From assembly GCA_030584185.1 (NCBI GenBank), contig CP129495.1, positions 1,789,469-1,853,468 on the forward strand: DNA of 64,000 nt. Reading direction: 5' to 3'. The position numbers were made by a program, and so were the translations under genes. Shown piece after piece: positions 26,961 through 61,530 of the stretch (position 1 is the stretch's first letter; each line of letters begins with the position of its first letter). The notes below the pieces were generated by a model, which worked only from the letters and a program-made list of their open reading frames with translations, was not told where the DNA came from and did no database searches. This stretch comes from Acidimicrobiia bacterium (GTDB lineage: Bacteria > Actinomycetota > Acidimicrobiia > Spongiisociales > UBA11373).

Positions 26961-27037
<77 letters not shown>

Positions 27038-27040
27038 CCG

Positions 27041-27068
27041 AAAAACCCTTGCACCGCAAGGGTTTTTC
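27041..27068 (+). terminator. rho-independent terminator after the tRNA
   Basis: AAAAACCCTTGC-ACCG-CAAGGGTTTTT perfect hairpin. Confidence 0.75.
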
Positions 27069-27104
27069 GCTTGTCAGGCCCCTGTCTCAACCTGGCTCTT
27101 GAGG

Positions 27105-27130
27105 GCTCCATCGCACATCCATCGCACACG
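27105..27130. repeat. 'CCATCGCACATCCATCGCACA' motif, copy 1 (att-arm-like)
   Basis: same motif at 30787 and 59106. Confidence 0.6.
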
Positions 27131-27324
27131 CCGATCACAACGAGACGTGCCAAGGCGCAGCGGGTGGGCTCCTTAGAGAGGTCTGTAACTCGGAGGTTGT
27201 GAGGGCTCCCAAGGTCCTCAGTGGGGAGGGTGGCTACCCTTGGCACGTGACTGGATCACTTCTTCGGACTCTTGCCACGCAGCGTGAGCCGTCCGAACCG
27301 ATCAGCGTTCGGTACGACGAGGCG

Positions 27325-27441
27325 ATGAAGATCAGCCTCGTCTACGAGGACGACCGGTGGGTACCGAGCTGGGAGTCACGGAAGGTCCAGAACACCAAGA
27401 AGTGCGACCACGAGACGGGTGAGGACCAGAAGGGCGCTTGA
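27325..27441 (+). CDS. candidate graspetide precursor peptide (small ORF; alternative start at 27199)
   Basis: small ORF directly upstream of, and overlapping the start of, the ATP-grasp gene; C-terminus 'NTKKCDHETGEDQKGA' rich in T/K/D/E. Confidence 0.3.
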   Translation: MKISLVYEDDRWVPSWESRKVQNTKKCDHETGEDQKGA

Positions 27442-28367
27442 GGACATCCACGGCTGCCATCCTCACGAACGAACGGGACTTCGCTGCCGATGTCGTTGTC
27501 CATCGGCTCCACGAGCTCGGAGTTGAGGTTCACCGAATCAATTACGAGGCTGCACGCACAAGCGAAGTCCCACCCTGGAGCCCATCGACGTCGGATCGCG
27601 ACGGCGAGCCCATGCCGAGCGTCGTGTGGTGGCGGCAGTTCGAGACCGATGAGAGCCCAGAAACCTTGCAGGACGTGGACGATCTCTTGGTCGAGCGGAC
27701 TCAGTGGCGGGCATGGGTTGCCACGCTTGCATCACCGAACAGCACCTGGATGAACGACCTCTGGGCTGCCCGGCGTGCCGAGAACAAGGTCGAACAGCTC
27801 CGCGTGGCGAAGTCGGTGGGGTTCAATGTCCCGCCGACTCTCATCACGAACGATCGGTTCAGGGCGATTGAATTCGAACAAGCCGTCGGCCCAGCGGTGG
27901 TCAAGACACTCTCCGCCGCCTATTTCTCGTTCTCTGACAAGTCGTTCGTATTCACCGAGCGCCTCGATCAAGCCACCGCCCTGCCAGCCGAAGCCTGGCA
28001 TGCCGCGCCGGTCGTCATCCAACAGCTCATCGAAGGCGGACTCGACGCAAGGGTCGTGTCTCTCGCTGGCCGCTGCTTCGCAGGCCGGTGCCGGAGCCGC
28101 GGACTTGACTGGCGGAAGACACCCTTCGATCCGGAGCTCTGGGAGCCATGGAATGCGCCTGAGCAGATTGTGCATGCGTGCGAGTCCTATCGCGCAAGGC
28201 TTGGCCTGGAGTTCGCCGCCTTCGATTTCATGATCACCTCGGAGTCCATCTTCTTCTTGGAGGCCAATCAAGCTGGAGAGTGGCTGTTCCTCGACAGGGC
28301 ACTCGACCTCGGCGTCGGCCTCGCGATCGCAGACCGGCTCGTCTCGCTGGGCAGTACTCGTGACTGA
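27438..28367 (+). CDS. ATP-grasp enzyme, MdnC/MvdD-like (RiPP graspetide maturase-like)
   Basis: pre-ATP-grasp N-terminus 'AAILTNERDFAADVVVHRLHELGVEVHRIN', ATP-grasp core 'FLEANQAGEWLF'; lower GC than its surroundings. Confidence 0.6.
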   Translation: MRTSTAAILTNERDFAADVVVHRLHELGVEVHRINYEAARTSEVPPWSPSTSDRDGEPMPSVVWWRQFETDESPETLQDVDDLLVERTQWRAWVATLASPNSTWMNDLWAARRAENKVEQLRVAKSVGFNVPPTLITNDRFRAIEFEQAVGPAVVKTLSAAYFSFSDKSFVFTERLDQATALPAEAWHAAPVVIQQLIEGGLDARVVSLAGRCFAGRCRSRGLDWRKTPFDPELWEPWNAPEQIVHACESYRARLGLEFAAFDFMITSESIFFLEANQAGEWLFLDRALDLGVGLAIADRLVSLGSTRD

Positions 28368-29154
28368 CGAAGTCGCTCCGGACGAGGGCAACGCCGCAAG
28401 ATCTTCGAGCGAATCGAAAACCGCCTACAGCCCTTCGGTGGTGATGCGGTTGAATCGCTCTCTGAGCCCAGTGTTCGGCCTGTGCCGGTCTTTCTGGTTC
28501 AACTCGAGGATCCGGATTCCTGAACGGGAGACCCTCGTGGCCGATTGGTCGACTGCGCTCGACACCAAGGAGGCTCAGGCCAGGCGAGCCGTCACAATCG
28601 GACGCGCCTACGACGACGCGGTAACCAGAGGTATCCGCGTCGAGGCAAAGGCAGTCGGCCTCCTCCAGGTCATTGCGATCGCCTTCGCCGTGGTCACCCT
28701 CGTGTTGAGTCGGCAGGACCTCGTGATCCGCGGTGTAGCGCTAGCAGCGCTCGTCTTTCTCACCTCAGCCACGTGGGGCGCACTGGAGGCACTCCGCGCT
28801 CGACCGCGACCGCAGGCCCTGGTGCGGACTGCGCTAACAGCCTCCGACGGACTCGTGGAGACAGCGGCCGCGGCCGAGCAACTCGAGTCCCTTCACCTGT
28901 ACTCATCCAACTTCCTCGCGGGCGTGGTACGAGATCTGGCCGTCGGTGGAGCAATCGCCCTACTGGCGTTGGTACTCGTCGGACTTGGGAGAGGAGATGC
29001 GGAACCCGTGCCGCTGCCAGCACAGACGACGACGATTCCAACCTCTACGACGGAGGCCGGTGCTCTTGGCGGCGACCATGGCGAGGTCGGCCAGCTCGGC
29101 CCCCTGGAACTCGCCGGAGAGGCTCAACCCGTGTTGGCGGTCACGGTTCGGTGA
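28360..29154 (+). CDS. hypothetical membrane protein
   Basis: GTG start overlapping the ATP-grasp stop; about 3 TM helices. Confidence 0.45.
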   Translation: MTDEVAPDEGNAARSSSESKTAYSPSVVMRLNRSLSPVFGLCRSFWFNSRIRIPERETLVADWSTALDTKEAQARRAVTIGRAYDDAVTRGIRVEAKAVGLLQVIAIAFAVVTLVLSRQDLVIRGVALAALVFLTSATWGALEALRARPRPQALVRTALTASDGLVETAAAAEQLESLHLYSSNFLAGVVRDLAVGGAIALLALVLVGLGRGDAEPVPLPAQTTTIPTSTTEAGALGGDHGEVGQLGPLELAGEAQPVLAVTVR

Positions 29155-29486
29155 GCCACGACCAGACGAACTCGCAACGCCATGATCTCCATCCAGGTGA
29201 TGGGCCGTAGGATTCGGTGCCCCGCGTGACAGGTCCATTCGACATGGCTCATGGGTTGAACGAGTTCTCAATCGCCGGAAAGCGCTACCTGCTCGTCGGT
29301 GTTTCCGCCAGCCACCTTGCGGGTCTCGCCGGTGGCGACGTGCCGGGGCGTGGCGCACTGGCGGAATGGCGCACCGGGGTGGAACCCTGGGCCGCCTCGT
29401 ACAATCTCGATTCGCTCCGGGATCCGATCTGGAACCTGAACCTCCCCGGGTTTCTTGGAGGCTCCGACCTTTGGGAGGATGGAGCC

Positions 29487-29813
29487 ATGACACGGAGACA
29501 GCAGGGGAAGTATCCGAACGAGGTGCGCCGTCGGACGGTGCGTCTGGTGTTGGAGCATCGTGACGAGTACGCCTCGGAGTGGGCGGCGATCACGTCGATA
29601 GCGGCCAAGTCGGGGATGACGGCTGAGACGTTGCGCAAGTGGGTGCGCCAGGTCGAGGTCGATGAGGGCCGGCGGCCGGGGGTGACGTCGGAGGAGTCGG
29701 TGCGGGTCCGGGAGCTGCAGCGCGAGAACCGGGAGCTGCGTCGGGCGAATGAGATCCTCAAGGCGGCGTCGGCTTTCTTCGCGGCGGAGCTCGACCGCCC
29801 ACAGCAGAGATGA
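29487..29813 (+). CDS. IS3-family transposase OrfA (HTH)
   Basis: '[21 protein letters not shown]' plus leucine-zipper region; RBS GGAGG. Confidence 0.85.
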
Positions 29814-30721
29814 TCGGGTTCATCGACGCTCACAAGGGGCGTCGCACTGAGGGTCTTGTTTGGGGAGTCGAGCCGATCTGCGCGGTGTTGCCGATCGCTT
29901 CTCAGACCTACTACGCGGCCCGGTCCCGGCCGGCTTCGGCGAGACGGCTGCGCGACGAGGCCCTCGAGGCCGAGGTGCTGCGGGTATGGGAGCAGAACTA
30001 CTCGGTGTATGGGGCCCCGAAGATCTGGGCGCAGCTGAACCGAGAAGGCATCATCGTGGCCCGTTGCACGGTGGAGCGTCTCATGCGCCGGTTGGGTATT
30101 CGCGGCGCCATCCGTGGCGGAGGACCCCGGACCACGAGAAGCGACCCGGCCGATGAGCGTCCCGCCGACCTGGTGGATCGGGACTTCACCGCCGAGGCTC
30201 CCGACACCAAGTGGGTGGCGGACTTCACCTATGTGCGCACCCGTTCGGGGTTCGTGTATGCGGCGTTTGTCATCGACTGCTACGCACGAGCCATCGTGGG
30301 CTGGAACGTGGCGCGGCGCATGACCACCGACCTGGTACTCACCGCACTCGAACAGGCCATCTGGGACCGACTCGGAGCCGGCGTCGTGGCCGGTCTCGTC
30401 TGCCACACCGACGCCGGAGCGCAGTACTTGTCGATTCGTCACACCGAACGACTCGCTCAAGCCGGCATCGACCCGTCGGTGGGATCCATCGGCGACAGCT
30501 ATGACAATGCCCTGGCGGAGTCGATCATCGGGCTCTACAAGACCGAGCTCGTCTCGAACCTAGGACCCTGGCACGGCTGCGACGATCTCGAACTCGAGAC
30601 CCTGCTCTGGGTCGACTGGTGGAACCACCGTCGACTCATGGGCACCTCCACCCCCGACGAAAAGGAGGCCACCTACTACCTTCAGAACACCACCATCGAA
30701 GCGATGACACTCAAGACATGA
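29810..30721 (+). CDS. IS3-family transposase OrfB (DDE integrase core)
   Basis: DDE residues in 'VADFTYV', 'HTDAGAQY', 'YKTE'; ATG overlaps the orfA stop (ATGA), in the -1 frame. Confidence 0.85.
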
Positions 30722-30770
30722 AGCCTCTACCAAACCCGGGGAGGTTCATCGAGGCTCGGCAGTGCCCACC

Positions 30771-30930
30771 CCTCCGATTCCCCTCCATCGCACATCCATC
30801 GCACAAGAGAGTGTGATGGGACGGTGGAGAACGCGAAATGACGCGAACCAAGAACGCCGTCTGAGCAGGCATTTCGCCCGTTTCCCCAGGTCGGCGGCTA
30901 ACCCGGACTCGGGCTCATAATTCGAAGAGG
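30771..30930. repeat. ~130-nt island-boundary repeat (copy 2) ending in a degenerate tRNA-Met fragment (30903-30920)
   Basis: about 80% identical to 59101-59240; contains hairpin CCATCGCACAAGAGAGTGTGATGG. Confidence 0.65.
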
Positions 30931-31497: not shown

Positions 31498-31836
31498 TCA
31501 CCTGTCGAGCCGGTAGTTGGGGCACAGCTCGATCTTCTGACCTGATAGGGCCAGCAGCTCTTCGGCGGACCGTAACGCTGCCACCACTTCGGGGGCGGAG
31601 ATCCGGTAGAAGATTTGTCGCCCTTCGGGGCGGTCATCCACTAGCCCACAGTCCTTGAGGCAGGCCACATGTCCCGAGATGTTCGACTGTGATCCGCCCA
31701 GCCGGTCGACTAGGTCCTTGACCCGCAGTTCGCCCGCTTCGGCTAGTTCTTCGAGGATTGACAGACGTGTCGGGTCGCCAAAGCCCCGGAACAGTTTCGC
31801 GGCGAGCTGCACTTCCATCCTGGTCTCAACACCCAC
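31498..31836 (-). CDS. ArsR/SmtB family metalloregulator
   Basis: 'FGDPTRLSILEELAEAGELRVKDLVDRLGGSQSNISGHVACLKDCGLV' wHTH. Confidence 0.8.
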   Translation of the reverse strand: MGVETRMEVQLAAKLFRGFGDPTRLSILEELAEAGELRVKDLVDRLGGSQSNISGHVACLKDCGLVDDRPEGRQIFYRISAPEVVAALRSAEELLALSGQKIELCPNYRLDR

Positions 31837-31996
31837 GGTGTGACGTCTCCTCTTCTGAACGGCCGGGAGCGATAATAGCTGTGGTCGGCGATATCGGGCT
31901 GGGCTGCGTGTCCACTCTCTGTTGTCGAATGCGACTCGGTGGCATCTGCCTACACATTGCTGAGAGCCTTGATTGATGCGGGTTCAGAGGTCGGCT

Positions 31997-33964
31997 TCAT
32001 AAGTGTGACTCGTGATGGGTTGGTGGGGGTGGGGCCGGGTTTCGGGCGCGGAGTCCGTTGAGGACGGCGATGATTTCGGAGACTTCGTGGACGAGAACGG
32101 CTCCGGCGATGGAGAGCCACCCGGTGACGGCGGATGGTATGAGGACTGCGAGGATGAGCACGGAGAACACGATGTTCTGACGGCTGATGTGCCGCGTTTT
32201 GCGTCCGAGGGCTACGGCGTATGGAAGGGTGCGGAGGTCGTCTCCCATCAGTGCCACGTCGGCGGCTTCGATGGCGGCGTCGGTGCCGGCCGTTCCCATG
32301 GCGATCCCGACGGTGGCGGTCGCCAGGGCGGGTGCGTCGTTGATTCCGTCGCCAACCATCGCCACTGGGCCGAGGGTGGTCTGTAGTTCGGTGACGGCCC
32401 GGCTCTTGTCGGCTGGTTTCAGTTCGGCGCGGACCTGGTCGATGCCGAGATGACCGGCGATGGCGGCGGCGGTGCGGGTGTTGTCGCCGGTGAGCATCAC
32501 GATGTCGCGGATCCCGCTGTGGTGGAGACCCTGTATGGCTTGGGGTGCCTCGGGGCGGTATTCGTCGCGGAGGGCGACGAGGCCGATCACCTGGTCGGGG
32601 TGCCCGACCAGGACCACGGTCTTGCCTTCTTCTTGCAGCCCATCGATGATCCCGCGTTTGTCTTCGATGGCGGCTCCAATGTCTGCGAACAGGGTGGCAC
32701 TGCCCACGTAGACGTCCTTTCCGTTGAGTTGGGCGCGGGCGCCGGCGCCGGTGAGGGCTTCGAAGGTGTCGGCCCGGCGCACCACGATGCCGTCGGCTTC
32801 GGCCCGCCGCACGATGGCTTGGGCCAGGGGATGTTCCGAGGAGGCCTCCACCGCGGCCGCGACGCGCAGCAACTCTTCTGGGTCGCTTGTGGCGAATGGG
32901 ATCAGGTCGGTGACTTGGGGTGTCCCCCGGGTCAGGGTGCCGGTCTTGTCCATCGCCAGAACATGGACCAGGCCCAGGTTCTCGAGGTGGATCCCTCCTT
33001 TGATTAGCACCCCTCGCTTGCCGGCGGAACCGATTGCTGCGGCGACCGCGACCGGGGTGGACATGACCAAGGCACAGGGGGCGCCGGCCACCGCCAGGGT
33101 GACGGCCCGCCGAACCCACACCGACGGGTCACCACCAAGCAGCGTCGGCACTACCGCCAGCAGGGCGGCGCCGGCGAGGATGGCGGGGCTGTAGTAGGCG
33201 CCGAAACGGTCGATGAGCCGTTGTGTCTGGGTCTTTTCCTCTTGGGCTTCATCGACCAGGTGGATGATTTGGGACAGGGTGTTGTCGGCGAATGTCCGGG
33301 TCACGGTGACCTCGACCGCTCCGGTCAGGTTCAGTGTGCCGGCGAACACGTCGCTACCGGGTCCCTTCTCCACCGGTACCGATTCGCCGGTTACCGGGGA
33401 TTCGTCCAGGCTCGTTGCACCGGAGAGGATCGTTCCGTCGGTGGCCAGGCTCTCACCTGGTCGCACCAGCATCACATCGCCAACGGCGAGCTCTTCTGCG
33501 GGCACGATGGTCTCGACACCGTTGCGGACCACGGTGGCTTCCTTGGGGGCCAGGTCGAGCAACGCTCGGATCGCGCCTCGGGTGCGGTCGTAGGTGAACT
33601 CTTCCAGACCCTCGGCGGCCCCGTACAGGAACGCCAAGAACGCGGCCTCCTCCCACAGACCCAACGCGGCAGAGCCAACGGTGGCGACTGCCATCAGCAC
33701 GTCGATGTTGACCCGGGGTCTGGCAATCGCCTCGACCGCCTCGCGGCCCCAATGCGACGCCCCCAACAACGCAGCCACCACATACAGGCCGATCGCGATT
33801 CCCACCGGGATGACCTCGATGCGCTCCAGCACAAACGCCGTCGCCAGTACCAGACCAGAGATCAGAGCGTTGCGCAACGGCGGGAAGGCCCACCACCGAC
33901 CCCGATACGGCTCCTCGTGCTCTGCGGTGTCGTCGTGTCCGGCTGCGTCCGGTTGCGTCATCAC
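31997..33964 (-). CDS. heavy-metal P1B-type ATPase (Zn/Co/Cd-type, P1B-4-like; no N-terminal metal-binding domain)
   Basis: [21 protein letters not shown]; TM4 'APC' motif; TM6 'HEVSE'. Confidence 0.8.
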   Translation of the reverse strand: MMTQPDAAGHDDTAEHEEPYRGRWWAFPPLRNALISGLVLATAFVLERIEVIPVGIAIGLYVVAALLGASHWGREAVEAIARPRVNIDVLMAVATVGSAALGLWEEAAFLAFLYGAAEGLEEFTYDRTRGAIRALLDLAPKEATVVRNGVETIVPAEELAVGDVMLVRPGESLATDGTILSGATSLDESPVTGESVPVEKGPGSDVFAGTLNLTGAVEVTVTRTFADNTLSQIIHLVDEAQEEKTQTQRLIDRFGAYYSPAILAGAALLAVVPTLLGGDPSVWVRRAVTLAVAGAPCALVMSTPVAVAAAIGSAGKRGVLIKGGIHLENLGLVHVLAMDKTGTLTRGTPQVTDLIPFATSDPEELLRVAAAVEASSEHPLAQAIVRRAEADGIVVRRADTFEALTGAGARAQLNGKDVYVGSATLFADIGAAIEDKRGIIDGLQEEGKTVVLVGHPDQVIGLVALRDEYRPEAPQAIQGLHHSGIRDIVMLTGDNTRTAAAIAGHLGIDQVRAELKPADKSRAVTELQTTLGPVAMVGDGINDAPALATATVGIAMGTAGTDAAIEAADVALMGDDLRTLPYAVALGRKTRHISRQNIVFSVLILAVLIPSAVTGWLSIAGAVLVHEVSEIIAVLNGLRARNPAPPPPTHHESHL

Positions 33965-34323
33965 GTGGTCCTCGCCGATCGGCTCGCCAATATCAAACTG
34001 TCAGAAGCGATGATATCGGAAACTGCCGAACAATCGTGTCCTTCGCCGGACCGCCAGGGGCGAGATCGTCGACGGAGCGGAAGGGGAGTACGCCGACTCG
34101 ACTCCGCTACTTCGGACCCGACCACGGCGCCAAGTTCCGCGACCACGCCAATGCCAACTTCAAAGGCATGGCCCGCATCAGGGTCAAACCCGACTGGGTC
34201 GAACTCATCGACCTTCAAACCGATATCCCAGCACCTAATGAGGCCCAGAAGCCAGGGTCGGCCGAGAGGATATCCGAATATCTGAGCTTGTATTCAGATG
34301 TTCGAAGTCATACTCTGGACAAG

Positions 34324-34680
34324 GTGGAATCTCGAGCTCCCGACTCTCATGGGCATGGCCCCCTGCCGGAAAGGCTGTTGGGTCTGGATGAGGCGCAACA
34401 CCTCGCTGAGCGGTTCAAGCTGTTGGCGGATCCGAGCCGGCTGCGGATGATCTACGCGCTCTTGGAGGCGGGGGAGGTGTGTGTCAGCGACCTGGCCCGC
34501 CTGGTGGAGGTGAGCGAGTCGGCCACCAGCCACCAGCTTCGGCAGCTGCGGTTGGCGGGGCTGGTCCGGGCCCGCAAGCAGGGCAGGGAGGTGTTCTATC
34601 GGGTGGCCGACACCCACGTGCGGCTTCTTCTGGATGTGGCGGTCGAGCACTACCTCCACGGCCACGGCACAGACAGATGA
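34324..34680 (+). CDS. ArsR/SmtB family metalloregulator
   Basis: 'LADPSRLRMIYALLEAGEVCVSDLARLVEVSESATSHQLRQLRLAGLV'; the start is uncertain (GTG near 34324; the track ORF begins at 34036). Confidence 0.7.
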   Translation: MESRAPDSHGHGPLPERLLGLDEAQHLAERFKLLADPSRLRMIYALLEAGEVCVSDLARLVEVSESATSHQLRQLRLAGLVRARKQGREVFYRVADTHVRLLLDVAVEHYLHGHGTDR

Positions 34681-35579
34681 CCGCGGCTCACACCCATGTG
34701 CCCCGGGCGGGGCGTCGTCATCTCCGACCACTCGCCATCGCCTTCGGGCTGGTAGTCGTGTTCATGGTGGTCGAAGCCGTGGCCGGGTTCCTCACCGGGT
34801 CGTTGGCGTTGGTCTCCGACGCCGGGCACATGGCAACCGACGCACTCGGCCTTGGTATGGCGTTGGCGGCGATCGTCGCCGCCGACCGGACTTCAGCAGG
34901 GAACGGACGCACCTACGGTCTCTACCGGTTGGAGATCCTCGCCGCACTGGCCAACGCGGTGCTGCTGTTCGCCGTCGCCGGGTACGTCCTCTACGAGGCC
35001 GTCCAGCGCTTTCGGGAGCCGCCCGATGTAGCGACTGTGCCGATGCTGGCAGTGGCGGTCGCCGGGCTCGTCGTCAACATCATCGGATGGCGGCTCCTCC
35101 GCACCGGTGCCCAAGAGTCGCTCAACGTCAAGGGCGCCTACCTCGAGGTGCTGGCCGACCTAGCAGGGTCGGTCGGAGTCATCGCCGCCGCGCTGATCAT
35201 GATCTCCACCGGCTGGGCATACGCCGATCCGCTCTTCGCTGCTCTCATCGGCCTCTTCATCCTTCCCCGGGCCTGGCGGCTCGGACACCAAGCCCTCCGC
35301 ATCCTCGTCCAGGCTGCACCGCCCGGCCTCGATCTCGACCGGCTCCAATCCGAACTCGGCTCAATCCCAGGAGTGGTCGACGTGCACGACCTCCACGTGT
35401 GGACACTCACCTCCGAGATGGATGTCGCCACCGTCCACCTCATGACTACCGCCACCACAGATCCCCACTCGGTTCTCGACCAAGCCCGCGGCCTCCTTCA
35501 AGACGACTACCGGATCGACCACGCCACCCTCCAGGTGGAACCCGACACCCATCAAGGCTGCTCCGAAGTCAGCTGGTAG
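34677..35579 (+). CDS. cation diffusion facilitator (CzcD-like) efflux protein
   Basis: ATG overlaps the arsR stop; 'GSLALVSDAGHMATD', 6 TM, C-terminal 'DVHDLHVW'. Confidence 0.85.
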   Translation: MTAAHTHVPRAGRRHLRPLAIAFGLVVVFMVVEAVAGFLTGSLALVSDAGHMATDALGLGMALAAIVAADRTSAGNGRTYGLYRLEILAALANAVLLFAVAGYVLYEAVQRFREPPDVATVPMLAVAVAGLVVNIIGWRLLRTGAQESLNVKGAYLEVLADLAGSVGVIAAALIMISTGWAYADPLFAALIGLFILPRAWRLGHQALRILVQAAPPGLDLDRLQSELGSIPGVVDVHDLHVWTLTSEMDVATVHLMTTATTDPHSVLDQARGLLQDDYRIDHATLQVEPDTHQGCSEVSW

Positions 35580-35798: not shown

Positions 35799-36401
35799 TC
35801 AGGGTCGCTCCTCGATCAGTTCGGTGTCGGGTCGGAAGGTCGACCAGGAGAACCAAAAGGTCCTGAGGTGGGTGATCGGCTCCAGAGTCTCACCGGTGAG
35901 AGGGCCGTCTGTGGCTTCACCGAGAATGTTCCAGGTGCTGCCGGTCTCCTCGTCGATGAAGCTGTCGCCTTCTGCCTGGAAGGTGAGCGTCTGGTCCTCG
36001 ACGACGGGCGAGAAGACTCCTACGGTTCCCACTTCGCGTCCGCTCGCCACCGATGAGGTTTCGAGGGCGGACGCTTGTCCGGGCTTCCAGAATATGACGA
36101 TCGGTTCACCGGCGAACTCGCCGACCGTCACGGTGGCCGTGTCTTCGTCTTCCCGGAGCGAGTCGAGGGTCCAAGCGACAGCGTCGTCTCCTTTCTCCAT
36201 CGCCACCACTCGTTGCATTGCCTTCGCCCGCACGTCGACGTCACCGCGGAAGAGGAAGGGTTGGCCGTCGGGGTCGTCGAGCCCGGTGTATGGGTTGGTT
36301 CCGTAGGCCCGTTGAGCTCCGGTGCGGTTTCTGTCGAGGACCTTGGCATCGGGTTTCGACTCTTTGAAGTCGCCCCAGGCGACCATTCCCGATGGGATGA
36401 A
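35799..36401 (-). pseudogene. DUF3179-family gene fragment, 5' end lost at the IS insertion
   Basis: reading frame continues up to the IS left end at 36402 with no N-terminal region. Confidence 0.5.
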
Positions 36402-36428
36402 TGAACCTCCCCGGGTTTGGTAGAGGCT

Positions 36429-37340
36429 TCATGTCTTGAGTGTCATCGCTTCGATGGTGGTGTTCTGAAGGTAGTAGGTGGCCTCCTTCTCGGTGGGGGT
36501 GGAGGTGCCCATGAGTCGACGGTGGTTCCACCAGTCGACCCAGAGCAGGGTCTCGAGTTCGAGATCGTCGCAGCCGTGCCAGGGTCCTAGGTTCGAGACG
36601 AGCTCGGTCTTGTAGAGCCCGATGATCGACTCCGCCAGGGCATTGTCATAGCTGTCGCCGATGGATCCCACCGACGGGTCGATGCCGGCTTGAGCGAGTC
36701 GTTCGGTGTGACGAATCGACAAGTACTGCGCTCCGGCGTCGGTGTGGCAGACGAGACCGGCCACGACGCCGGCTCCGAGTCGGTCCCAGATGGCCTGTTC
36801 GAGTGCGGTGAGTACCAGGTCGGTGGTCATGCGCCGCGCCACGTTCCAGCCCACGATGGCTCGTGCGTAGCAGTCGATGACAAACGCCGCATACACGAAC
36901 CCCGAACGGGTGCGCACATAGGTGAAGTCCGCCACCCACTTGGTGTCGGGAGCCTCGGCGGTGAAGTCCCGATCCACCAGGTCGGCGGGACGCTCATCGG
37001 CCGGGTCGCTTCTCGTGGTCCGGGGTCCTCCGCCACGGATGGCGCCGCGAATACCCAACCGGCGCATGAGACGCTCCACCGTGCAACGGGCCACGATGAT
37101 GCCTTCTCGGTTCAGCTGCGCCCAGATCTTCGGGGCCCCATACACCGAGTAGTTCTGCTCCCATACCCGCAGCACCTCGGCCTCGAGGGCCTCGTCGCGC
37201 AGCCGTCTCGCCGAAGCCGGCCGGGACCGGGCCGCGTAGTAGGTCTGAGAAGCGATCGGCAACACCGCGCAGATCGGCTCGACTCCCCAAACAAGACCCT
37301 CAGTGCGACGCCCCTTGTGAGCGTCGATGAACCCGATCAT
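36429..37340 (-). CDS. IS3-family transposase OrfB
   Basis: 303-aa protein identical to 29810..30721. Confidence 0.85.
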
Positions 37341-37663
37341 CTCTGCTGTGGGCGGTCGAGCTCCGCCGCGAAGAAAGCCGACGCCGCCTTGAGGATCTCA
37401 TTCGCCCGACGCAGCTCCCGGTTCTCGCGCTGCAGCTCCCGGACCCGCACCGACTCCTCCGACGTCACCCCCGGCCGCCGGCCCTCATCGACCTCGGCCT
37501 GGCGCACCCACTTGCGCAACGTCTCAGCCGTCATCCCCGACTTGGCCGCTATCGACGTGATCGCCGCCCACTCCGAGGCGTACTCGTCACGATGCTCCAA
37601 CACCAGACGCACCGTCCGACGGCGCACCTCGTTCGGGTACTTCCCCTGCTGTCTCCGTGTCAT
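37337..37663 (-). CDS. IS3-family transposase OrfA
   Basis: identical to copy 1 orfA. Confidence 0.8.
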
Positions 37664-37713
37664 GGCTCCATCCTCCCAAAGGTCGGAGCCTCCAAGAAAC
37701 CCGGGGAGGTTCA

Positions 37714-38818
37714 CTGCTTCAGCCTGCATCCCGGGGAGGATGTGCTGATAGGTGGCCATGGTGAAGGCGGGACTGGAGTGCCCGAGTCGTTCCGATACCA
37801 CCTTGAGTGGCACTCCGGCCTTGAGGAGGAGACTGGCGTGGGTGTGTCTGAGGTCGTGGAGGCTGATCCGGGGCAGCGTGGTCTTTGCGACCGCCCGTTC
37901 GAACGCCTGGGACAGTGAGTGGGGATGCATGACGGTCCCGTCCGGTTTGGTGAACACGGGCCCTTCCTGGTCGTGGCCTCCGGTTTCGTTCTGCTGGTGG
38001 TGTTGCCACCTCACAAGCATTTCGATGGTGTTCGGATCCAGGTCGACGGTGCGCCGCGAGCTCCGGGTCTTGCCGGGACTCTCATGGACCTCGTATCCGA
38101 TGGAGACGACGGACCGGCAAACCGACAGGCGACCGGCGTCGAAGTCGACCTGACCCCACCGCAAGCCGAGGATCTCGGATCGTCGCATACCAGTGTGGGA
38201 GGCGAGCCAGAACGTGGGGTGGTGCCGTAGCCCAGAGGTCTGTTGGAGGAAGCAGCGGAGTTGTGCGGCGGTCCACACCCGGTGTGCTCTGTTCGTGTTG
38301 CGTCGGTGTTTGGGGGCGTTGGCGGCAGAGGCCGGGTTGTCCCGCAGTAGGTGTTTGCGTACCGCGTCCCCGAAGGCGGCTCGCAGGATGACGTGGATTT
38401 CGAGGACTGTCTTCGGTGAGAGTCCTCCTCTGTGGTCGGACCGTCCCTCTTCGAGGAGCAGGTTGTAGAGCTGTTCGAGCTGGTCGGGTTGCAGCTTCCG
38501 TAGCACCACGTCTCCGATGTGGGGGATCACGTGGAGGCGAACCATCCGCTGGTATCCGGCGAAGGTGACCGGTGCGAGTTGGAGCTGTTTGGCGGGCAGC
38601 CAGTAACGGAGGAGGAACCCGGCGACGGTCATCTGCGATCTGCGACCCGATCTCCGTTCCTCCTCTCTGGCTCCGAGTTGTGCCGCAAGCGCTTCAGCCT
38701 CGGCGCGGTCGGTGCCGGCCGGCACCCAGCGTCGACGCTCCTTGCCGGTCTCGGGATCGACACCTTCGTAGACCACCGCATACCAGCGGTGACCTTTTCG
38801 AGCTATGTAGCCGTTCAT
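37714..38818 (-). pseudogene. int: tyrosine-type site-specific integrase, 3' end disrupted by IS insertion
   Basis: '[12 protein letters not shown]' and '[10 protein letters not shown]' catalytic region; the ORF reads through into the IS end ('...MQAEA|VNLPGFLGG'). Confidence 0.8.
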
Positions 38819-42224: not shown

Positions 42225-42592
42225 GACACGACGACCTTGCCTCGAAGCATTCCCATCTGGCAGGCGAACTCGTATTCACCTGGCTCGGTGGGGGTGAACT
42301 CGATTGGGACGTTGGAGCCTTCGGGGAGGTCGGCGGAGACGCCGAAGGCGTCGAAGACGACCTTCTCCGAGCAGGGATCGGCCTCCTGGCGGTTGAAGAC
42401 CAGCTTGACCGGTCTGCCGGCTTCGACCCTGATGGTGTCGGGGGTATAACCGCCCTTGACGACGATGAACGCTTCCTGCTTGCCCCCGGCACCGACCGCA
42501 GCCGGCGCTCCTTGGGGTTTGGAGAGCCAGAAGTACCACACGATGAGCCCGATGAGGGCCAGACCGACCAGGTTGACGATGAGGACGGTCAT
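42221..42592 (-). CDS. cupredoxin-like copper-binding protein
   Basis: TM anchor; type-1 Cu ligands '...[10 protein letters not shown]'. Confidence 0.65.
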
Positions 42593-45063
42593 GCGGTTCC
42601 TCCTTTTCCACCAGACGGTTTCCAGCGGCGAAGCCGGTTGGCGTTGGAGACGACGGTGACCGAGGAGAAGGCCATCGCCGCCCCGGCGAGCATCGGGGAG
42701 AGCAGGATCCCGAAGAACGGGTAGAGAATCCCGGCGGCGACGGGGATACCGAGGGTGTTGTAGGCGAAGGCGCCCACCAGGTTCTGGTGGACGTTTCTGA
42801 TGGTTGCGTTGGACAGCTCGATGGCAGTGACGATCCCGCTGAGGCTGCCTTTGACCAGGGTGACGTCGCCGGATTCCATGGCGACGTCGGTGCCGGTGCC
42901 CATCGCCATCCCGACGTCGGCTTGGGCGAGGGCGGGGGCGTCGTTGATCCCGTCCCCGACCATGGCCACCTTCTTGCCTTCCGCTTGGAGCAGTCTGACC
43001 TGGGTTGCCTTGTCTTCGGGGAGGACCTCGGCGAGGACCCGGTCGATGCCGACCTGGCGGGCGATGGCTTCGGCGGTGCGTTGGTTGTCGCCGGTGATCA
43101 TCACCACCTGGAGGTCGAGTTCGTGGAGACGGCGGATGGCGGCGGCGGAGTCGTCTTTGACGGTGTCGGCGACGGCGATGGCTCCGGCCAGCTCGCCGTC
43201 GATACCGATGACCATGGCGGTCTTGCCTTCGTCGGCGAGTCGCGCCAGGGTCTCCTCTGAGGGGCCGGCGGCGATGCCGCGGTCGGCCATGAACTTCAGG
43301 TTGCCCAACACCACGTGCCGGCTGTTCACGGTGGCTTCGATGCCGTGGCCGGGAACCGCATCGAAGTCAGCGGCTTCGGCCACCTCGAGGTTCCGGGTTC
43401 GAGCGCCGGTGACGATCGCCTCACCGAGCGGGTGCTCAGAACCGGACTCGGCCGCCGCAGCGAGGGACAGCACCTCGCCTTCATCGAAGCCGTTGAAGGC
43501 GACGACGTCGGTGAGCGCCGGTTCACCCTTGGTGACGGTGCCGGTCTTGTCCAAAACCACGGTGTCTATCCGGTGGGCGGTTTCCAGGGCGTCGCCCGAC
43601 TTGATCAGGATCCCGTTCTCAGCTCCTTTGCCGATGCCGACCATGAGCGAGGTGGGAGTGGCCAGGCCGAGAGCGCATGGGCAGGCGATGACGAGGACGG
43701 TCACCGCGGTGATCACTGCATACACCAACGCCGGGGTCGGCCCGAAGGTGAACCACACCATGAAGGTGAGCACGGCGGCGATCATCACGGCTGGCACGAA
43801 GTAGGCGGCCACCTTGTCCACGGTCCGCTGGATCGGCGCCTTCGACCCTTGCGCGTCCCGCACCATTTCGATGATCTGGGCCAACATGGTGTCCCGACCC
43901 ACCCGGGTGGCTCGGAAACGGAAGAAGCCGGTCTTGTTGATGGTGGCGCCGATGACGGTGTCACCTTCGGACTTCTCCGACGGGATCGGTTCCCCGGTGA
44001 CCATCGACTCGTCCACCGCGGACACTCCGGAGACGACGATGCCGTCGACAGGGATCTTCTCCCCAGGCCGAACCACCACGATGTCGTCGACTGCGACCTG
44101 TTCGAAGGGGAGCTCCACTTCGGAGCCGTCGCGGAGCACCCGGGCGGTCTTTGCCTGGAGTCCGATGAGCTTCTTCAGCGCCTCCGAGGTGCGGGCCCGA
44201 GCCCGGATCTCCAGCGCCGATCCCAGGACGACGAAAGCGGTGACCACGGTGGTGACGTCGAAGAACACGTCACGCAGCTGCGCTTCGGGGAAGAACCCGG
44301 GGAACAACAACGCCACCGTCGAGTACAGCCACGCTGCGGAGATGCCGATGGCGATCAGCGTGTACATGTTCGCCGCCCGATGCTTGAAGGCGGCCCAGGC
44401 GCCAGTAAAGAACTGCGAACCGGAATAGATCATCACCGCCAGGGAGGCCACCGCCATCGCACCCCAGATCAGATCCAACTCGGACGACCCCTTCTCCGGC
44501 ACACCGGGGAAGATCTCCGGGTAGGAGAAGTAGATGATCGGCAGCGACACGATGGCGGCGAACCAGAACTTGCGGAGCAGACCGCGATACAGCCGCTCTC
44601 TCCCCTCCTGCTCGGCGTCGCCTGAATCGTCGGCGAGGGGGTGCGCCGAGTAGCCGGCCGCCGACACCGCTGTCATCAGAGCCTCAGAGGTGACCGGCCC
44701 TCCCACGTCGACGGTGGCCTCGTCGGTGGCCAGGTTGACCCGAGCGTCGACGACGCCGGGGACCGACGTCAGCGCCGACTCCACCCTGGAGACACAGGAG
44801 GCGCAGGTCATCCCCTCGACGCCGAGGCGTACCGTCGAAGTCGCCACTCCACCGGATCGGCCCGGCACCGCCAAGTGTTCGGCTTCTTCGTCGTCCTCGT
44901 CGCCCTCGCCGTCCGACGCTTCACCGCCGCCGGGGGTGGTGTAACGCTGCGGGTCGGCGAGGAAGCTCTGCCGGCAGTGCTCGGAACAGAACCCGAAGTC
45001 CGGGTACCCATCCACCCGTAGCGCGTCTGGTCCGACGGTCATCCCACATACCGGGTCTCGCAT
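42589..45063 (-). CDS. copA: copper-translocating P-type ATPase (CopA/CtpA-like) with N-terminal YHS/TRASH plus HMA domains
   Basis: 'DPVCGM' TRASH, '[12 protein letters not shown]' HMA, 'CPC' TM motif, [15 protein letters not shown]. Confidence 0.9.
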
Positions 45064-45101
45064 CTCGACTCCTTTCAGTAGCGGTGCCATGTCACAACAC
45101 C

Positions 45102-52164: not shown

Positions 52165-54513
52165 ATGACCCACACCCACACCCACACCCAGGAACGCCAC
52201 GACACGGTGGTCCTCCAGGTCGGAGGGATGCAGTTCGCTTCCGAGAAGAACAAGGTCGAGTCGTTCCTCGGCCGCATGAACGGGGTGGTCGCCGTCGACG
52301 CCAACCCGGTGGCGCAGACAGCGACGGTCACGTTCGATCCTTCTGTCGCGACCGCCGAGCAGCTGCGGGAGTGTGTCATCGAATGCGGATACCACTGCGC
52401 CGGCGAGTCGGTCCCCGCCCACGTCTGCTACGAGGAGGCGCCCCAGGCCCATCCCGGCGAGGAACGATCACCCCATGCGGTGATGGGCCACGGCAGCCAC
52501 GGCGAGATGTCGATGGACGCCATGGTCACCGACATGCGCAACCGCTTCCTGGTGGCGTTGCTCTTCACCATCCCCATCGTCTTGTACTCACCATTGGGAC
52601 GCGACACCCTCGGCTTCACTCTGGGCACCCCGTTCGGACTGCGCGACGACGTGTTCGCCCTGCTCCTCAGCCTTCCGGTGGTCTTCTGGGCGGGATGGAT
52701 CTTCTTCGACGGCGCTGCCGCCGCGCTGCGTCGTCGCACCCTCGACATGATGGTTCTCGTCGCCGTCGCCATCGGCGCCGGATGGCTCTACTCCCTGGCG
52801 GTCACCCTCACCGGAGGGGGCGAGGTGTTCTACGAGGCGGCGGCGATGCTCGCCGTGTTCGTCCTCCTCGGCCACTGGTTCGAGATGCGGGCCCGGGGCG
52901 GCGCCAACGACGCCATCCGAACCCTGATGAGCCTGGCACCACCAATGGCCCTCGTGATCCGCGACGGAGCCGAGGTCGAGATCCCGACTGCCGACGTCGT
53001 CGTGGGTGACCTGCTGTTGATCCGACCCGGTGCCCGCATCCCGGTTGACGGCGCTGTCGTCGAAGGCGAATCCGAGGTCGACGAGTCGATGGTCACCGGC
53101 GAGAGCCTCCCCGTGGCCAAACGTACCGGGAGCGAGGTGGTTGGCGCGACCATCAACACCACAGGCACCCTTCGAGTCGAAGCCACCCGGGTTGGTGCGG
53201 ACACCGCCCTCGCCCAGATCGTCGATCTCGTCCAGGAGGCACAGAACTCCAAAGCGCCCGGACAGCGCCTCGCCGACCGCGCCGCCTTCTGGCTCGTCCT
53301 CGTCGCCCTGCTCGGTGGTGCCCTCACCCTCGCCGGCTGGATGATCGCCGGCGAGGACTTCTCCACCGCGCTCCTGTTTGCCATCACCGTGGTGGTGATC
53401 ACCTGCCCAGACGCCCTCGGCCTGGCCACCCCCACCGCGGTCATGGTCGGGACCGGCATGGGCGCCCGCCGCGGGGTGCTGTTCAAGAACGCCACCGCCA
53501 TCGAGACCGCCGCCCGCATCGACACCGTGGTCATGGACAAGACCGGCACCCTCACCAAAGGCGAACCGGAGGTGACCGACTTCATCACCATCGGCCAACC
53601 ATCTGATGCGTTGCGGCTCGTCGCAGCAGTAGAACGAGAGTCGGAACACCCGCTCGCCCGGGCCGTCGTCCGCTACGCCGAAACCCAGGGCGTCGACGCC
53701 GCCGCGGCGGAACGTTTCGAAAACGTCCCCGGTCACGGTGCCATCGCCACCGTCGACGGACACCGAGTGGCGGTGGGCAACGTCCGGTTCATGGAGCGAG
53801 AAGGCGTCCACCTCGGCAGCCTCGGTACGAGCCGCGCGGAGATCGCCGCCGGTGGCCGCACCGCGGTGCTCGCCGCCGTCGACGGGGCGGCAGTCGCGGT
53901 GATCGGCCTCGCCGACGCGCCCCGGGACACGTCCGCTGAGGCGATTCGCGACCTCCACGATCTCGGTATCGAGGTGGTCATGCTCACCGGCGACAACCAG
54001 GCCACCGCCGACCGTATCGCCGCCCAGCTCGGCATCGACACCGTCATCGCCGAGGTCCTTCCCGAAGACAAGGCCGCGAAGATCAGCGAGCTCCAAGCCC
54101 AGGGCAAGACGGTGGCCATGGTCGGGGACGGAGTCAACGATGCACCGGCCCTGGCCACGGCCGACCTCGGTATCGCCATCGGAGCCGGGACCGACGTCGC
54201 CATCGAGACCGCCGACCTCGTCCTGATGAGATCCGACCCGCTCGATGTGCCCATCGCCATCCGTATCGGCCGAGGCACCCTGCGCAAGATGCGTCAGAAC
54301 CTGGGATGGGCCGTCGGTTACAACAGCCTGGCTCTTCCTATCGCCGCCGGCCTCCTCTACCCGTCCCTCGGTGTGGTGCTCCGACCCGAGTGGGCCGCCC
54401 TCTCCATGTCCGGCTCCAGCTTCCTCGTCGCCACCAACGCCGTACTCCTCAAACGACTCCGTCTCCCCAGCGAGGGAGACAGCGCGAAACCAACCAGTGG
54501 CGGCCCAACGTGA
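52165..54513 (+). CDS. copper P1B-type ATPase with His-rich N-terminus and atypical 'CPD' transmembrane motif (CopB-like)
   Basis: 'MTHTHTHTQ', HMA-like fold lacking CxxC ('[10 protein letters not shown]'), '[12 protein letters not shown]', [15 protein letters not shown]. Confidence 0.8.
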
Positions 54514-57861: not shown

Positions 57862-58082
57862 TCGGGACGCGCCGAGAACGAGAAGGATGCACCCGTGATC
57901 CCGTTCGCCGGCGGGCGAAGGCGGCATAGTGATGACAACGAGATTCTCGGTATCACCGGAACCCTGTTCGACGGCCTCTACGCCTGGCTGCACCGACGGC
58001 ACGGGTGACAGACACGCTTGATTGACAAATGCGAGCCGGTGGCAACTTCTCTGCGCCATTGGCCGTAGTTACCGTCCGTCTC

Positions 58083-59100
58083 ATGAGCGACGGCGCGCAA
58101 CCCGACCATGGTGGAGAACGTAGGTCGCATGGTCTGTGGCATCGACTCGTCCATCTGTTGAGCCACGACCATGACCACGGTTCGGCGCACAAGGTGTTGG
58201 ATGCGGGAGCCGAAGGCATCCGCGCCACCAAGATCTCGCTGGTTGGTCTCGGACTTACGGCTCTCTTGCAGGCGCTCGTTGTTGTTCTCAGCGGCTCGGT
58301 TGCCCTGGCTTCCGACACCCTCCACAATCTCGGCGACGCCCTAACCGCAATCCCCCTCTGGATCGCCTTCTCCCTGGGCAGACGCAGCCCCACCCGCAGC
58401 TACACCTACGGCTACCACCGCGCCGAAGATGTCGCCGGAGTCGTCATCGTCCTCGCCATCGGCGCCTCCGCCGCGCTCATCATCTGGGAATCGGTGCAGC
58501 GTCTCCTCGAGCCGCGACTCATCGATTACATCCCCTGGGTGATCGCAGCCGGTCTCATCGGCGCCGCCGGAAACGAGCTTGTAGCCCGATACAGGATCCG
58601 AGTGGGCAGACGGATCGGATCAGAGGCGCTGGTCGCCGACGGTCAGCACGCCCGCACCGACGCCCTCACCTCGCTCACCGTCGTGGTCGCCGGAATCGGC
58701 GCCGCCTTCGGAGCAGCCTGGGTGGACCCTGTTGCCGGGCTCGTTGTCGCCCTGGTGATCCTGCGGCTGTTGTTCCGATCGGCACGGTCGATCACGCGGC
58801 GTCTCCTCGATGCTGTCGACCCGGAGCTGGTCGACGGGACCGAGAAGATCATCGCCGGGGTGGATGGGGTGCTAGCCGTTACCGATCTGAGGCTTCGTTG
58901 GCACGGACACCAGCTTCACGTTTCCGCGTGTGTGGCCGTCGATGCCGACCTCACCGTGGCCGCCTGGCCACGAAACCGCTCACGAAGTCGAACACGCACT
59001 CCACCACGCCTACAGCTTCCCGGTAATCACAATGATCCACATCGACCCAGAGGGCCAGACGAGCGCCCACGACGCCACCGCCCACCACCGGCATTGAGTA
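58083..59100 (+). pseudogene. cation diffusion facilitator with frameshift near 58960
   Basis: CDF motifs up to 'VAVDADLTVA'; the conserved C-terminus 'GHETAHEVEHALHHAY...HIDPEG' continues in the +1 frame to TGA at 59098-59100. Confidence 0.6.
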
Positions 59101-59282
59101 GGTTCCATCGCACATCCATCGCACAAGAGAGTGCGATGGGACCGTCAAGAACGCGAAATGACGCGAAGCGAAAATGCCGTCTGAACAGGCGTTTCGCGGA
59201 TTTGCCCTGGTCAGTGGACACCCCGGACTCGGGCTCATAACCCGAAGGTCGCGGGTTCAAATCCCGCCCCCGCTACTACCGA
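59101..59282. repeat. ~130-nt island-boundary repeat (copy 3) plus 46-nt tRNA-Met 3' fragment (59231-59276)
   Basis: 59231-59276 is identical to tRNA positions 26990-27035; upstream part about 80% identical to 30781-30910. Confidence 0.8.
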
Positions 59283-59332
59283 AGGTCCTGGTCAGAGCGA
59301 TTTCTGGCCAGGGCCTTGTCGCGCTGACGGCC

Positions 59333-59718: not shown

Positions 59719-60576
59719 CTACCTCGGTTCGCTCCGGGCGCTGGCCCAGAACGCTCGGAGGATGATCATCGCCTGGTCGACGGTGGCTTCGGCAAGCCCG
59801 AGTTCGTCGGCGAAGGCGGGATAGTCCTCGGTCCAGAAGAGGGGCGGATCGGGCAGCTCGTCCGGAACCGGGTGGGTGGCCCGTACCGAGAAGACGTGTT
59901 GGGTCGCACTCATGGCTCTTCCTGCGTCGAGGCCTCCATGGATGAAGGCGACCATGTCGGCCAGGTCTTTGACCCTGGTGTTGTCTCGAGCGTCCCATGG
60001 TCGAGTCATGGCGTGGACCTTCTCGGCGAACTGCTGGGCGACGTCGGTCGCTTCGACTTCGAAGTCCTCGAACCCGGCGAAGGACAGGAGAGAGGTCAGC
60101 GGCAGCATCTCGGTGCTGGTCAGCTCATCGGTCCTGGCGACCACGTCGACCCGAACCGTGGCGAAGTTCCTGCCCGCCAGGTCGGCGGAGACACTGAAGC
60201 GCCACCCTGGCCGACCTGCCTGGTCTGTCTCGAGAGCGGTCGGTTCCGACACGTCGAACAGGAAGCCGTCACCTGCCGGATCGATCGAAACGGCAGCGGT
60301 AAGGCGCTCATGGGCTTCGATCGCACCTTCCGCGTCGGTGCGAAGGTTGAGGTCGAGGTCCTTGGTCATCCGGGCCGAGTCACCGATGCGAAGCTCGACG
60401 GCCATGCCGCCCTTGACCACCCACATCCCCGGCTGACTGGTGATCAGGCGGAGCAGGATTCGTTCGAACACCACCCGACGGCGGAGCCGATTGAGGTCCG
60501 TGCCCGTCTCGCGGGCCTGGTTGAGCAGTCGTTGCTCCAGGGCCTGGCGGAAGGCGCCGACGGACTCATAGGTCAC
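59719..60576 (-). CDS. abiEii: AbiEii/AbiGii-family nucleotidyltransferase toxin (type IV TA)
   Basis: 285-aa protein with conserved N-terminal motifs of the family; overlaps the AbiEi-like gene. Confidence 0.7.
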   Translation of the reverse strand: MTYESVGAFRQALEQRLLNQARETGTDLNRLRRRVVFERILLRLITSQPGMWVVKGGMAVELRIGDSARMTKDLDLNLRTDAEGAIEAHERLTAAVSIDPAGDGFLFDVSEPTALETDQAGRPGWRFSVSADLAGRNFATVRVDVVARTDELTSTEMLPLTSLLSFAGFEDFEVEATDVAQQFAEKVHAMTRPWDARDNTRVKDLADMVAFIHGGLDAGRAMSATQHVFSVRATHPVPDELPDPPLFWTEDYPAFADELGLAEATVDQAMIILRAFWASARSEPR

Positions 60577-61445: not shown

Positions 61446-61488
61446 CGGCGAGGAACTCATAACCCGAAGGTCGCGGGTTCAAATCCCG
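61446..61488. repeat. 43-nt tRNA-Met 3' fragment (attR-like core, copy 4)
   Basis: identical to tRNA 26993-27035. Confidence 0.8.
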
Positions 61489-61490
61489 CC

Positions 61491-61530
61491 CCCGCTACGG
61501 AGCAAGGACCCAGGCCGTGCCTGGGTCCTT
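61491..61530 (+). terminator. hairpin GGAGCAAGGACCCAGG-CCGTG-CCTGGGTCCTTGCTCC
   Basis: perfect 16-bp stem immediately after the tRNA fragment. Confidence 0.55.

Follow-up and report, generated by a model that had tools for sequence, protein, structure and literature searches.

A predicted graspetide cassette of the group-7 (marinomonasin) type in a tRNA-Met island of an Acidimicrobiia-like actinobacterium

What is made by three overlapping genes that follow a tRNA gene and encode a small peptide, an ATP-grasp protein and a membrane protein? The question is raised by a locus in a 64,000-nucleotide stretch of DNA from an Acidimicrobiia bacterium (contig CP129495.1, positions 1,789,469 to 1,853,468; hereafter the window). 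An earlier reading made from the sequence only had proposed a graspetide-type locus, that is, a locus for a peptide made by the ribosome and modified after its translation (RiPP), with a precursor, an ATP-grasp maturase and a membrane protein. This proposal is supported by the homology of the enzyme and of the precursor core and by the coupling of the three genes. The locus is very probably a self-contained graspetide cassette of the group-7 (marinomonasin) type, and it forms the first cargo of a tRNA-Met island in an Acidimicrobiia-like actinobacterium. The guanine-plus-cytosine (GC) content of the window is high (0.66-0.73), and the nearest public relatives of the cassette locus are metagenome-assembled genomes (MAGs) of Acidimicrobiia and Ilumatobacteraceae. 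The value of the locus rests mainly on its uncharacterised, near-universal membrane partner and on its mobile context.

Gene arrangement and the ATP-grasp enzyme

Three full-length, co-directional open reading frames (ORFs), overlapping as one operon, are located 3' of the tRNA-Met gene:

26961..27037, forward strand: tRNA-Met (CAT), found with ARAGORN; site where the island is integrated; the 3' portion (26988-27042) is the left copy of a direct repeat (blastn)
27247..27441, forward strand: predicted graspetide precursor, 64 amino acids (aa), leader motifs LLRTLAT, VRYD and WVPSWES; mechanical ORF from 27199, start set by conservation
27438..28367, forward strand: putative ATP-grasp peptide macrocyclase (graspetide synthetase) of 309 aa, starting with TTG
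28360..29154, forward strand: third gene, uncharacterised all-helical membrane protein, 264 aa, three hydrophobic segments; GTG start, alternative ATG at 28444

The precursor stop and the TTG start of the ATP-grasp gene overlap by 4 nt, and the GTG of the third gene at 28360 overlaps the ATP-grasp stop codon (28365-28367) by 8 nt. A protein with three transmembrane (TM) segments, coupled through a 4-nt GTGA junction, had been described here. The coupling and the three hydrophobic segments are confirmed, while the junction is the longer overlap. The mechanical small ORF spans 27199-27441 and would encode 80 aa. The N-termini of nine orthologues start 2-4 residues ahead of the conserved LLRxLAT motif, and the gene call in the contig of locus L062, 97.6% identical to the window, is 64 aa. 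The precursor therefore likely starts at GTG 27247, and not at 27199 as previously assumed; the Thr/Lys/Asp/Glu-rich tail reported for this ORF is present. No sigma-70-like promoter was detected in a scan of the locus; two terminator-like matches within the third gene are weak and at chance level.

The ATP-grasp protein was compared with the NCBIfam models. The graspetide maturase model TIGR04187 matches at 6e-48, MvdC at 1e-42, MvdD at 3e-22 and grasp-with-SPASM at 2e-12, while the RimK model (TIGR00768) reaches 7e-5 and 22 bits against a cut-off of 143. The earlier assignment to the MdnC/MvdD type rather than to RimK is borne out by these values. It should be said against the graspetide assignment that the four better matches also lie below their curated cut-offs (for TIGR04187, 164 bits against 350). 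Since all NCBIfam scores lie below these cut-offs, the enzyme is regarded as a divergent member. Scans of the enzyme against Pfam and PADLOC returned nothing.

A profile of 22 ATP-grasp family members was used for the structure comparison. It matches the microviridin-type synthetases over the full length: AMdnB (7m4s) at 2e-56, MdnB (5ig8) at 3e-54, CdnC (7mgv) at 1e-43 and MdnC (5ig9) at 2e-40, and likewise 9bou at 3e-49. PsnB (7drm) is matched at 3e-17 and RimK structures in the PDB at about 3e-6. The full-length matches agree with the predicted pre-ATP-grasp N-terminal domain, and the protein has the features of an MdnB/MdnC/MvdD-type ligase including this domain. Residues K117, K156, D263, E275 and N277 are invariant in the family (...AAFDF...FLEANQAGEW, with the motif FLEANxxGEW). 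By analogy with ATP-grasp enzymes in general they would be the metal- and ATP-binding residues.

The group-1 microviridin synthetases MdnB/MdnC, AMdnB and CdnC (5ig8, 5ig9, 7m4s, 7mgv) have the same fold, length and pre-ATP-grasp domain as the window enzyme, and the logic of leader-guided side-chain ligation would be common to both. However, the window locus has one ligase in place of separate ester and amide ligases. Its core lacks TxKYPSDWEE, its leader lacks PFFARFL, and neither a GNAT acetyltransferase nor an ABC transporter is present in the locus.

The ATP-grasp fold is also common to ligases of the RimK and glutathione-synthetase type, which would add amino acids to a protein or metabolite and would leave the small ORF unrelated or non-coding. 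The automated JGI annotation names many homologues of the window enzyme 'glutathione synthase/RimK-type ligase-like ATP-grasp enzyme', and there is the weak RimK match given above. However, the graspetide maturase models score better by roughly 40 orders of magnitude, and RimK has no dedicated precursor ORF. The small ORF of the window, in contrast, has a counterpart in all orthologous loci, overlaps the ATP-grasp start and is under purifying selection, and its core matches that of a family in which a peptide has been found by experiment to carry cross-links (PMC9576775). A RimK-type function is thus extremely improbable.

The precursor peptide and its relation to group 7

The precursor ends in NTKKCDHETGEDQKGA, with the core T50-K-K-C-D-H-E-T-G-E-D-Q-K-G-A64. 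As is characteristic of graspetides, the adjacent co-directional gene encodes a leader followed by a core with Thr/Ser/Lys donors and Asp/Glu acceptors. In a set of 77 homologous ATP-grasp proteins, mostly metagenomic, an ORF of about 63-73 aa abuts or overlaps the ATP-grasp start in every locus where the enzyme is at least 41% identical and the upstream DNA is readable (L001-L007, L011, L012, L014-L018 and L062). These loci include Nocardioides marmoriginsengisoli, Knoellia locipacati, Marmoricola and a Bifidobacteriaceae MAG. Locus L027 likewise has a conserved precursor overlapping the ATP-grasp start. The search for homologous small ORFs upstream of orthologues, which had been suggested as a check of the earlier proposal, was therefore successful in all such loci, and the condition set for refuting that proposal, orthologues that never have such an ORF, is contradicted.

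The orthologous small ORFs follow the pattern LLRxLAT ... (V/I)RYD ... W(V/I)PSWES ... (T/S)KKxDxETGEDxKG(x)-stop, and the core is almost invariant across those compared. In ungapped pairwise comparisons, the ratio of nonsynonymous to synonymous substitution (dN/dS) of the precursor is 0.09-0.19; the proportion of synonymous differences (pS) is 0.5-0.7, so that synonymous sites are near saturation. The comparison of orthologues indicates that the small ORF is a real translated gene, under purifying selection and functionally tied to the ATP-grasp gene. No match to the precursor was found in the Pfam, NCBIfam or PADLOC scans.

Some variation of the precursor was observed in other loci. Four group-7 metagenome contigs (L094, L115, L129 and L135) carry two to three tandem precursor genes about 215 nt apart, each with TKKxDxETGEDxKG. 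A core subtype in which ETGED is replaced by EKGED or EKTED, and which is extended at the C-terminus by KDRWRP or KDSLMW, is found in Thermoproteota (L019), Solirubrobacteraceae (L020) and Solirubrobacterales (L022), and a core of this type also occurs in the Haloarcula and Opitutus members of the precursor cluster 171 described below. Locus L020 also has a membrane-protein gene.

Graspetide group 7 is a group of Lee et al. 2020 and Ramesh et al. 2021, and the published groups are reportedly defined on a sequence similarity network. In the data published by Makarova et al. (2022; supplementary files 11 and 32 in PMC8939145), the core motif of the window is present as precursor cluster 171, labelled 'Lee gr_07', which corresponds to graspetide group 7. 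The consensus given there is ...HILLxxA...PExxxYDxxxGxW...TKKxDVETGEDQKGE, and the cluster covers Proteobacteria, Firmicutes, Bacteroidetes, Fibrobacteres, Verrucomicrobia and archaea. It contains the marinomonasin precursor of Marinomonas fungiae, ending in ATKKCDVETGEDQKGE (PMC8939145). Marinomonasin is a tricyclic peptide that was produced in a heterologous host (Kaweewan et al. 2021, cited in PMC9576775), and both marinomonasin and Gra-3 from Bacillus sp. S66, also of group 7, are reported with three dehydrations each (PMC9576775). The cataloguing of the core family dates from 2020-2022, and E. coli has already been used to make two of its members, so that the window cassette is ordinary as a graspetide locus.

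A hidden Markov model (HMM) built from 23 cluster-171 sequences matches the window precursor and five orthologues with E-values of 1e-5 to 1e-7 (database size 1e6), the match to the window precursor being driven by the core. This match contradicts the earlier statement that the precursor falls in no recognised family, and the suggestion of a possible new graspetide group is accordingly not supported. The group-7 core motif (T/S)KKxDxETGEDxKG is present in the window precursor, whose core has two differences from that of marinomonasin in its 15 positions (V/H, and E/A at the end). The position of the core at the extreme C-terminus of a precursor of about 60-70 aa is the same as in group 7, as is the overlap of the precursor stop with the ATP-grasp start. 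The same applies to the layout of the precursor, with an N-terminal hydrophobic hLLxxxA, a central YD and an aromatic W, and to the small membrane-protein gene directly in third place (Martelella, Azospirillum, and 68 of 71 metagenome loci among the matches listed).

The two differ in the leader, which reads LLRxLAT ... VRYD ... WVPSWES in the clade of the window and HILLxxA ... PExxYD ... GxW in cluster 171. The resemblance between these leaders is at the level of motifs only (hLLxxLA, YD, W), and a global alignment of the window and marinomonasin precursors has 25 identical positions, mostly in the core. The window ATP-grasp is about 29% identical to the canonical group-7 enzymes of Martelella and Azospirillum, and its third gene is only remotely similar to the proteobacterial counterparts, as described in the next section. 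In addition, no acetyltransferase or efflux pump is found beside the window cassette, whereas both are described as frequent in group 7 in PMC13097080.

The clade of the window is actinobacterial, with Acidimicrobiia, Ilumatobacteraceae, Nocardioides, Knoellia, Marmoricola and Bifidobacteriaceae. In a neighbor-joining tree of 41 ATP-grasp proteins its neighbours are the TKK-type and group-2/3-like enzymes, with the Streptomyces tgmB-type enzymes further off. Among the matches listed, five of the 97 TKK-associated metagenome enzymes reach an identity of 44% or more with the window enzyme.

Several results speak against membership in group 7. A leader-only HMM found no match to cluster 171, and a leader-only hhalign comparison gave an E-value of 0.14. 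The median score of the window enzyme is 100 bits against the 97 TKK-associated enzymes and 86 bits against enzymes of other groups. Monophyly of all enzymes with a TKK core obtains 7 of 100 bootstraps in the tree. The similarity of the cores could in principle reflect motifs retained or converged upon by a distinct enzyme lineage. The locus was filed as a divergent member of the group-7 type, with the core feature present, the leader feature absent and enzyme scores that barely separate group 7 from other groups. The comparisons thus identify the window locus as a divergent actinobacterial member of the known group-7 (marinomonasin) type and not as a new class.

This actinobacterial branch has a new leader and an enzyme of about 29% identity, and it keeps the near-invariant TKKxDxETGEDxKG core. 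It may be considered a natural experiment in which co-evolution of leader and enzyme can be set against a fixed core. This suggests that the constraint on the core comes from its target rather than from the enzyme.

The membrane protein and a possible pathway

The hydrophobic segments of the third-gene product span residues 98-116, 121-139 and 189-207. A motif Y84-x5-R90-x6-K97 is located just before TM1, A141 and L145 follow TM2, and N184 precedes TM3. The C-terminus is intact; because it ends exactly as that of P0078, the insertion sequence (IS) downstream did not cut this gene. No match was found in the Pfam, NCBIfam or PADLOC scans. A SLATT-like pore effector was considered on the basis of the architecture and was dropped, since 14 diverse members gave no Pfam SLATT match at E-values up to 10.

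Within the actinobacterial clade the third-gene products are clearly homologous. A word-indexed homologue search, which is weak for a low-complexity membrane protein, gave 7 and 16 matches, while an exhaustive profile search gave 53 representative clusters. In Martelella and Azospirillum (group 7) and in a Solirubrobacteraceae locus, the ATP-grasp gene is followed by a gene comparable in size and architecture. A similar gene is also found on a P. aeruginosa plasmid, with a TKT...DDD-repeat precursor, and in the Leptospira phage LE1, with a thuringinin-like precursor. In the alignment across groups, R90 and K97 (R-x6-K before TM1) and A141 are invariant, and Y84, L145 and N184 are near-invariant.

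The back-translated core was also scanned in metagenome contigs, which gave at least 120 loci; the counts that follow are among the matches listed. In 94 of 106 cases the ORF next after the motif ORF has 250 aa or more, and all 97 ORFs of ATP-grasp size match the family HMM. A third ORF is found within -60 to +200 nt of the ATP-grasp stop in 68 of the 71 loci with enough sequence, and 67 of these 68 third ORFs have at least two hydrophobic segments. The third-gene HMM matches 72 of 73 third ORFs at E <1e-3, with no match in reversed-sequence controls. A membrane protein with no family model is thus a near-universal third component of group-7 cassettes. When a profile of the 68 most distant third genes was aligned with the actinobacterial profile (hhalign), the probability was 57% with an E-value of 1e-4, and the Y..R..hExKA motif and the Asn before TM3 were in register. 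This is suggestive, but not conclusive, of remote homology between the distant and the actinobacterial third genes. The third gene probably recurs in other graspetide groups as well.

Uncharacterised membrane proteins of clusters 18 and 40 are listed among the commonest graspetide-associated families by Makarova et al. (PMC8939145). Peptide transport is proposed there for cluster 18, found in thuringinin loci, and the role of cluster 40 is called unclear; transport is also proposed for uncharacterised membrane proteins in graspetide loci without known transporters (PMC8939145). The window protein resembles these clusters as a small protein with several TM segments encoded right after the ATP-grasp gene in loci without a known transporter. 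The third genes of the Leptospira phage and of the P. aeruginosa plasmid align with it and have R90 and K97 in common. This relationship across groups is one of a short motif and a common architecture. Dependence on partner proteins has recently been shown for other graspetides (PMC13097080).

The following order of events may be proposed for the pathway. The 64-aa precursor would be translated first, and its N-terminal leader (LLRxLAT ... VRYD ... WVPSWES) would dock on the ATP-grasp enzyme. The enzyme would use ATP to activate the core carboxylates D54, E56, E59 and D60 as acyl-phosphates, which would then be joined to T50, K51, K52 and perhaps K62, so that rings of both the macrolactone and the macrolactam kind would form. 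Three rings (-54 Da) are probable in the window product, as judged from marinomonasin and Gra-3. The cross-links, in both number and topology, are predictions. Marinomonasin reportedly has its rings closed by two isopeptide bonds and one ester. A protease is not among the conserved neighbours, and the leader may or may not be removed.

The translationally coupled membrane protein would then act on the product at the membrane. Among export, immunity, scaffold and effector functions, export or release of the peptide is tentatively preferred, with self-protection or scaffolding as the alternatives. Two points tell against even this preference. The structure models of the third-gene product are poor (pLDDT 47 and 56) and a fold search returned generic helical bundles only; moreover, an export role is assigned through guilt by association only.

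The island and the genomic neighbourhood of the cassette

The remaining features of the island that bear on the cassette are as follows:

29244..29436, forward strand: fourth island gene, first 64 codons only (219 aa in L062), severed by an IS3-family insertion; outside the conserved trio
29437..30749, forward strand: IS3-family insertion sequence (HTH_Tnp_1 + rve); inverted second copy at 36401-37713, 99.6% identical
59229..59283, forward strand: direct repeat of the tRNA-Met 3' part, 55 nt, 98%; right end of the island of about 32 kb; further 43-nt copy (100%) at 61456-61498

The GC content drops from 0.69-0.73 at 25.4-26.8 kb to 0.61-0.63 at 27.0-28.8 kb. The cassette lies at the left edge of a lower-GC island of about 32 kb bounded by tRNA-derived direct repeats: the tRNA-Met 3' part is repeated at 59229-59283 and 61456-61498. 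The GC content at third codon positions (GC3) is 0.70-0.85 for island genes and 0.92-0.96 for the core genes upstream. The sequence-only reading had noted a lower-GC patch at 27100-28400 and suggested its recent acquisition. The drop is real, but the patch extends into the whole island; acquisition is supported by the tRNA-Met repeats, and the unit acquired is the island and not a segment of 1.3 kb. The third repeat copy likely marks a second islet of about 2.2 kb beside the island, through tandem integration at one attachment (att) site.

Locus L062 is 97.6% identical to the window over 27006-29436; after the trio, L062 has two small genes and a tyrosine integrase. In the window, the first IS3-family copy severs the fourth gene after codon 64, and the inverted copy truncates a tyrosine integrase, the ORF 37337-38818 being an integrase-OrfA fusion. 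Metal-resistance genes lie between the two inverted copies, an arrangement suggestive of a composite transposon or of an inversion. The window cassette might accordingly be a decaying, non-functional remnant of an island rearranged by IS3 elements, which have truncated two of its genes, and decayed cassettes do exist elsewhere. In an Acidimicrobiia MAG the ATP-grasp gene is truncated to residues 121-304 (L013:2157-2991). In a MAG labelled Acidobacteriota, a tRNA-Met is directly followed by an ATP-grasp remnant of 56 residues with 82% identity (L025:4600-5170). However, the three ORFs of the window are full length with the invariant family residues in place, the DNA is nearly identical to the uninterrupted copy in L062, and the insertion lies 282 nt beyond the stop of the third gene. 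Decay of the window cassette is therefore very unlikely.

No fourth gene is conserved with the trio. Among the matches listed, the 147 nearest ORFs of 73 metagenome cassettes fall into 113 Pfam families, each in at most 4 loci. The commonest neighbour families in these 73 loci are resolvase, AAA_21, recombinase, integrase, ThsB_TIR/TIR_2 and ResIII, and no conserved protease or ABC transporter was found near these cassettes. The inspected neighbourhoods contained TrwC relaxase with DUF5677; DndB, Vsr, a methylase and an integrase; HipA with an integrase; M78-DUF4411 and ThiF-DUF4407; AbiEi/AbiEii; and a TIR protein, GmrSD with AAA_21, and IS110. The cassette, on these comparisons, is a compact, horizontally mobile unit.

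Such a unit in island and defence-type neighbourhoods raises, without establishing, a role in conflict rather than in classical secondary metabolism. The trio would then be an anti-phage, anti-plasmid or addiction module and not the pathway of a secreted natural product. The membrane protein could be a pore-like effector, a sensor or a gate, and the cross-linked peptide could regulate it or inhibit a protease of the invader or host. ATP-dependent cross-linking would serve as a switch or inhibitor in a RiPP-based immune or addiction system. This would explain why the cassette travels alone, without a protease or transporter, amid recombinases and TIR, AbiE, HipA, Dnd and restriction genes. The variable, mobile or defence-type surroundings described above, the position of the window cassette as first cargo of a tRNA island, and a near-universal small membrane protein in spite of the lack of a conserved leader peptidase or ABC exporter are all in agreement with it. 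However, the neighbourhood counts have no background control, and small mobile cargo sets accumulate in such hotspots anyway; RiPP clusters, too, are often found on mobile elements. None of the three proteins matches PADLOC-DB v2 (0 families at E-values up to 1), a literature search found no paper tying ATP-grasp or graspetide cassettes to phage defence, and no relatives of the cassette were found in the IMG/VR viral contigs. A conflict module is therefore considered unlikely, and the group-7 type graspetide pathway remains the preferred interpretation.

The other contents of the island and some related loci may be described briefly. The island cargo consists mainly of metal efflux genes (31498-35579, 42589-45090, 52165-54513 and 58029-59240), with three P-type ATPases, two of them with HMA, and two CDF transporters. 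A 112-aa ORF at 31498-31836 looks by eye like an ArsR-type regulator. Between the second and third tRNA-derived repeats there is an AbiEii-type nucleotidyltransferase toxin gene (59719-60576); a 199-aa ORF (60573-61172), upstream of this gene and overlapping it, is possibly the AbiEi antitoxin. Two 144-nt segments, at 30784-30927 after the first insertion sequence and at 59104-59247 before the right att repeat, are 85% identical. In the Bifidobacteriaceae MAG, the trio lies together with a neighbouring TIR-domain gene in an islet whose GC3 is 0.69 against 0.90-0.95 around it (L014:2993-6568).

Two phage records hold distant ATP-grasp relatives that belong to other graspetide groups. These are Leptospira phage LE1 (L064:2398-4092) and an unverified 'Bacteriophage sp.' contig (L063). 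They carry graspetide trios, at least in the case of the Leptospira phage, composed of a TKT...DDD-type repeat precursor, an ATP-grasp protein and a membrane protein with the R-x6-K motif.

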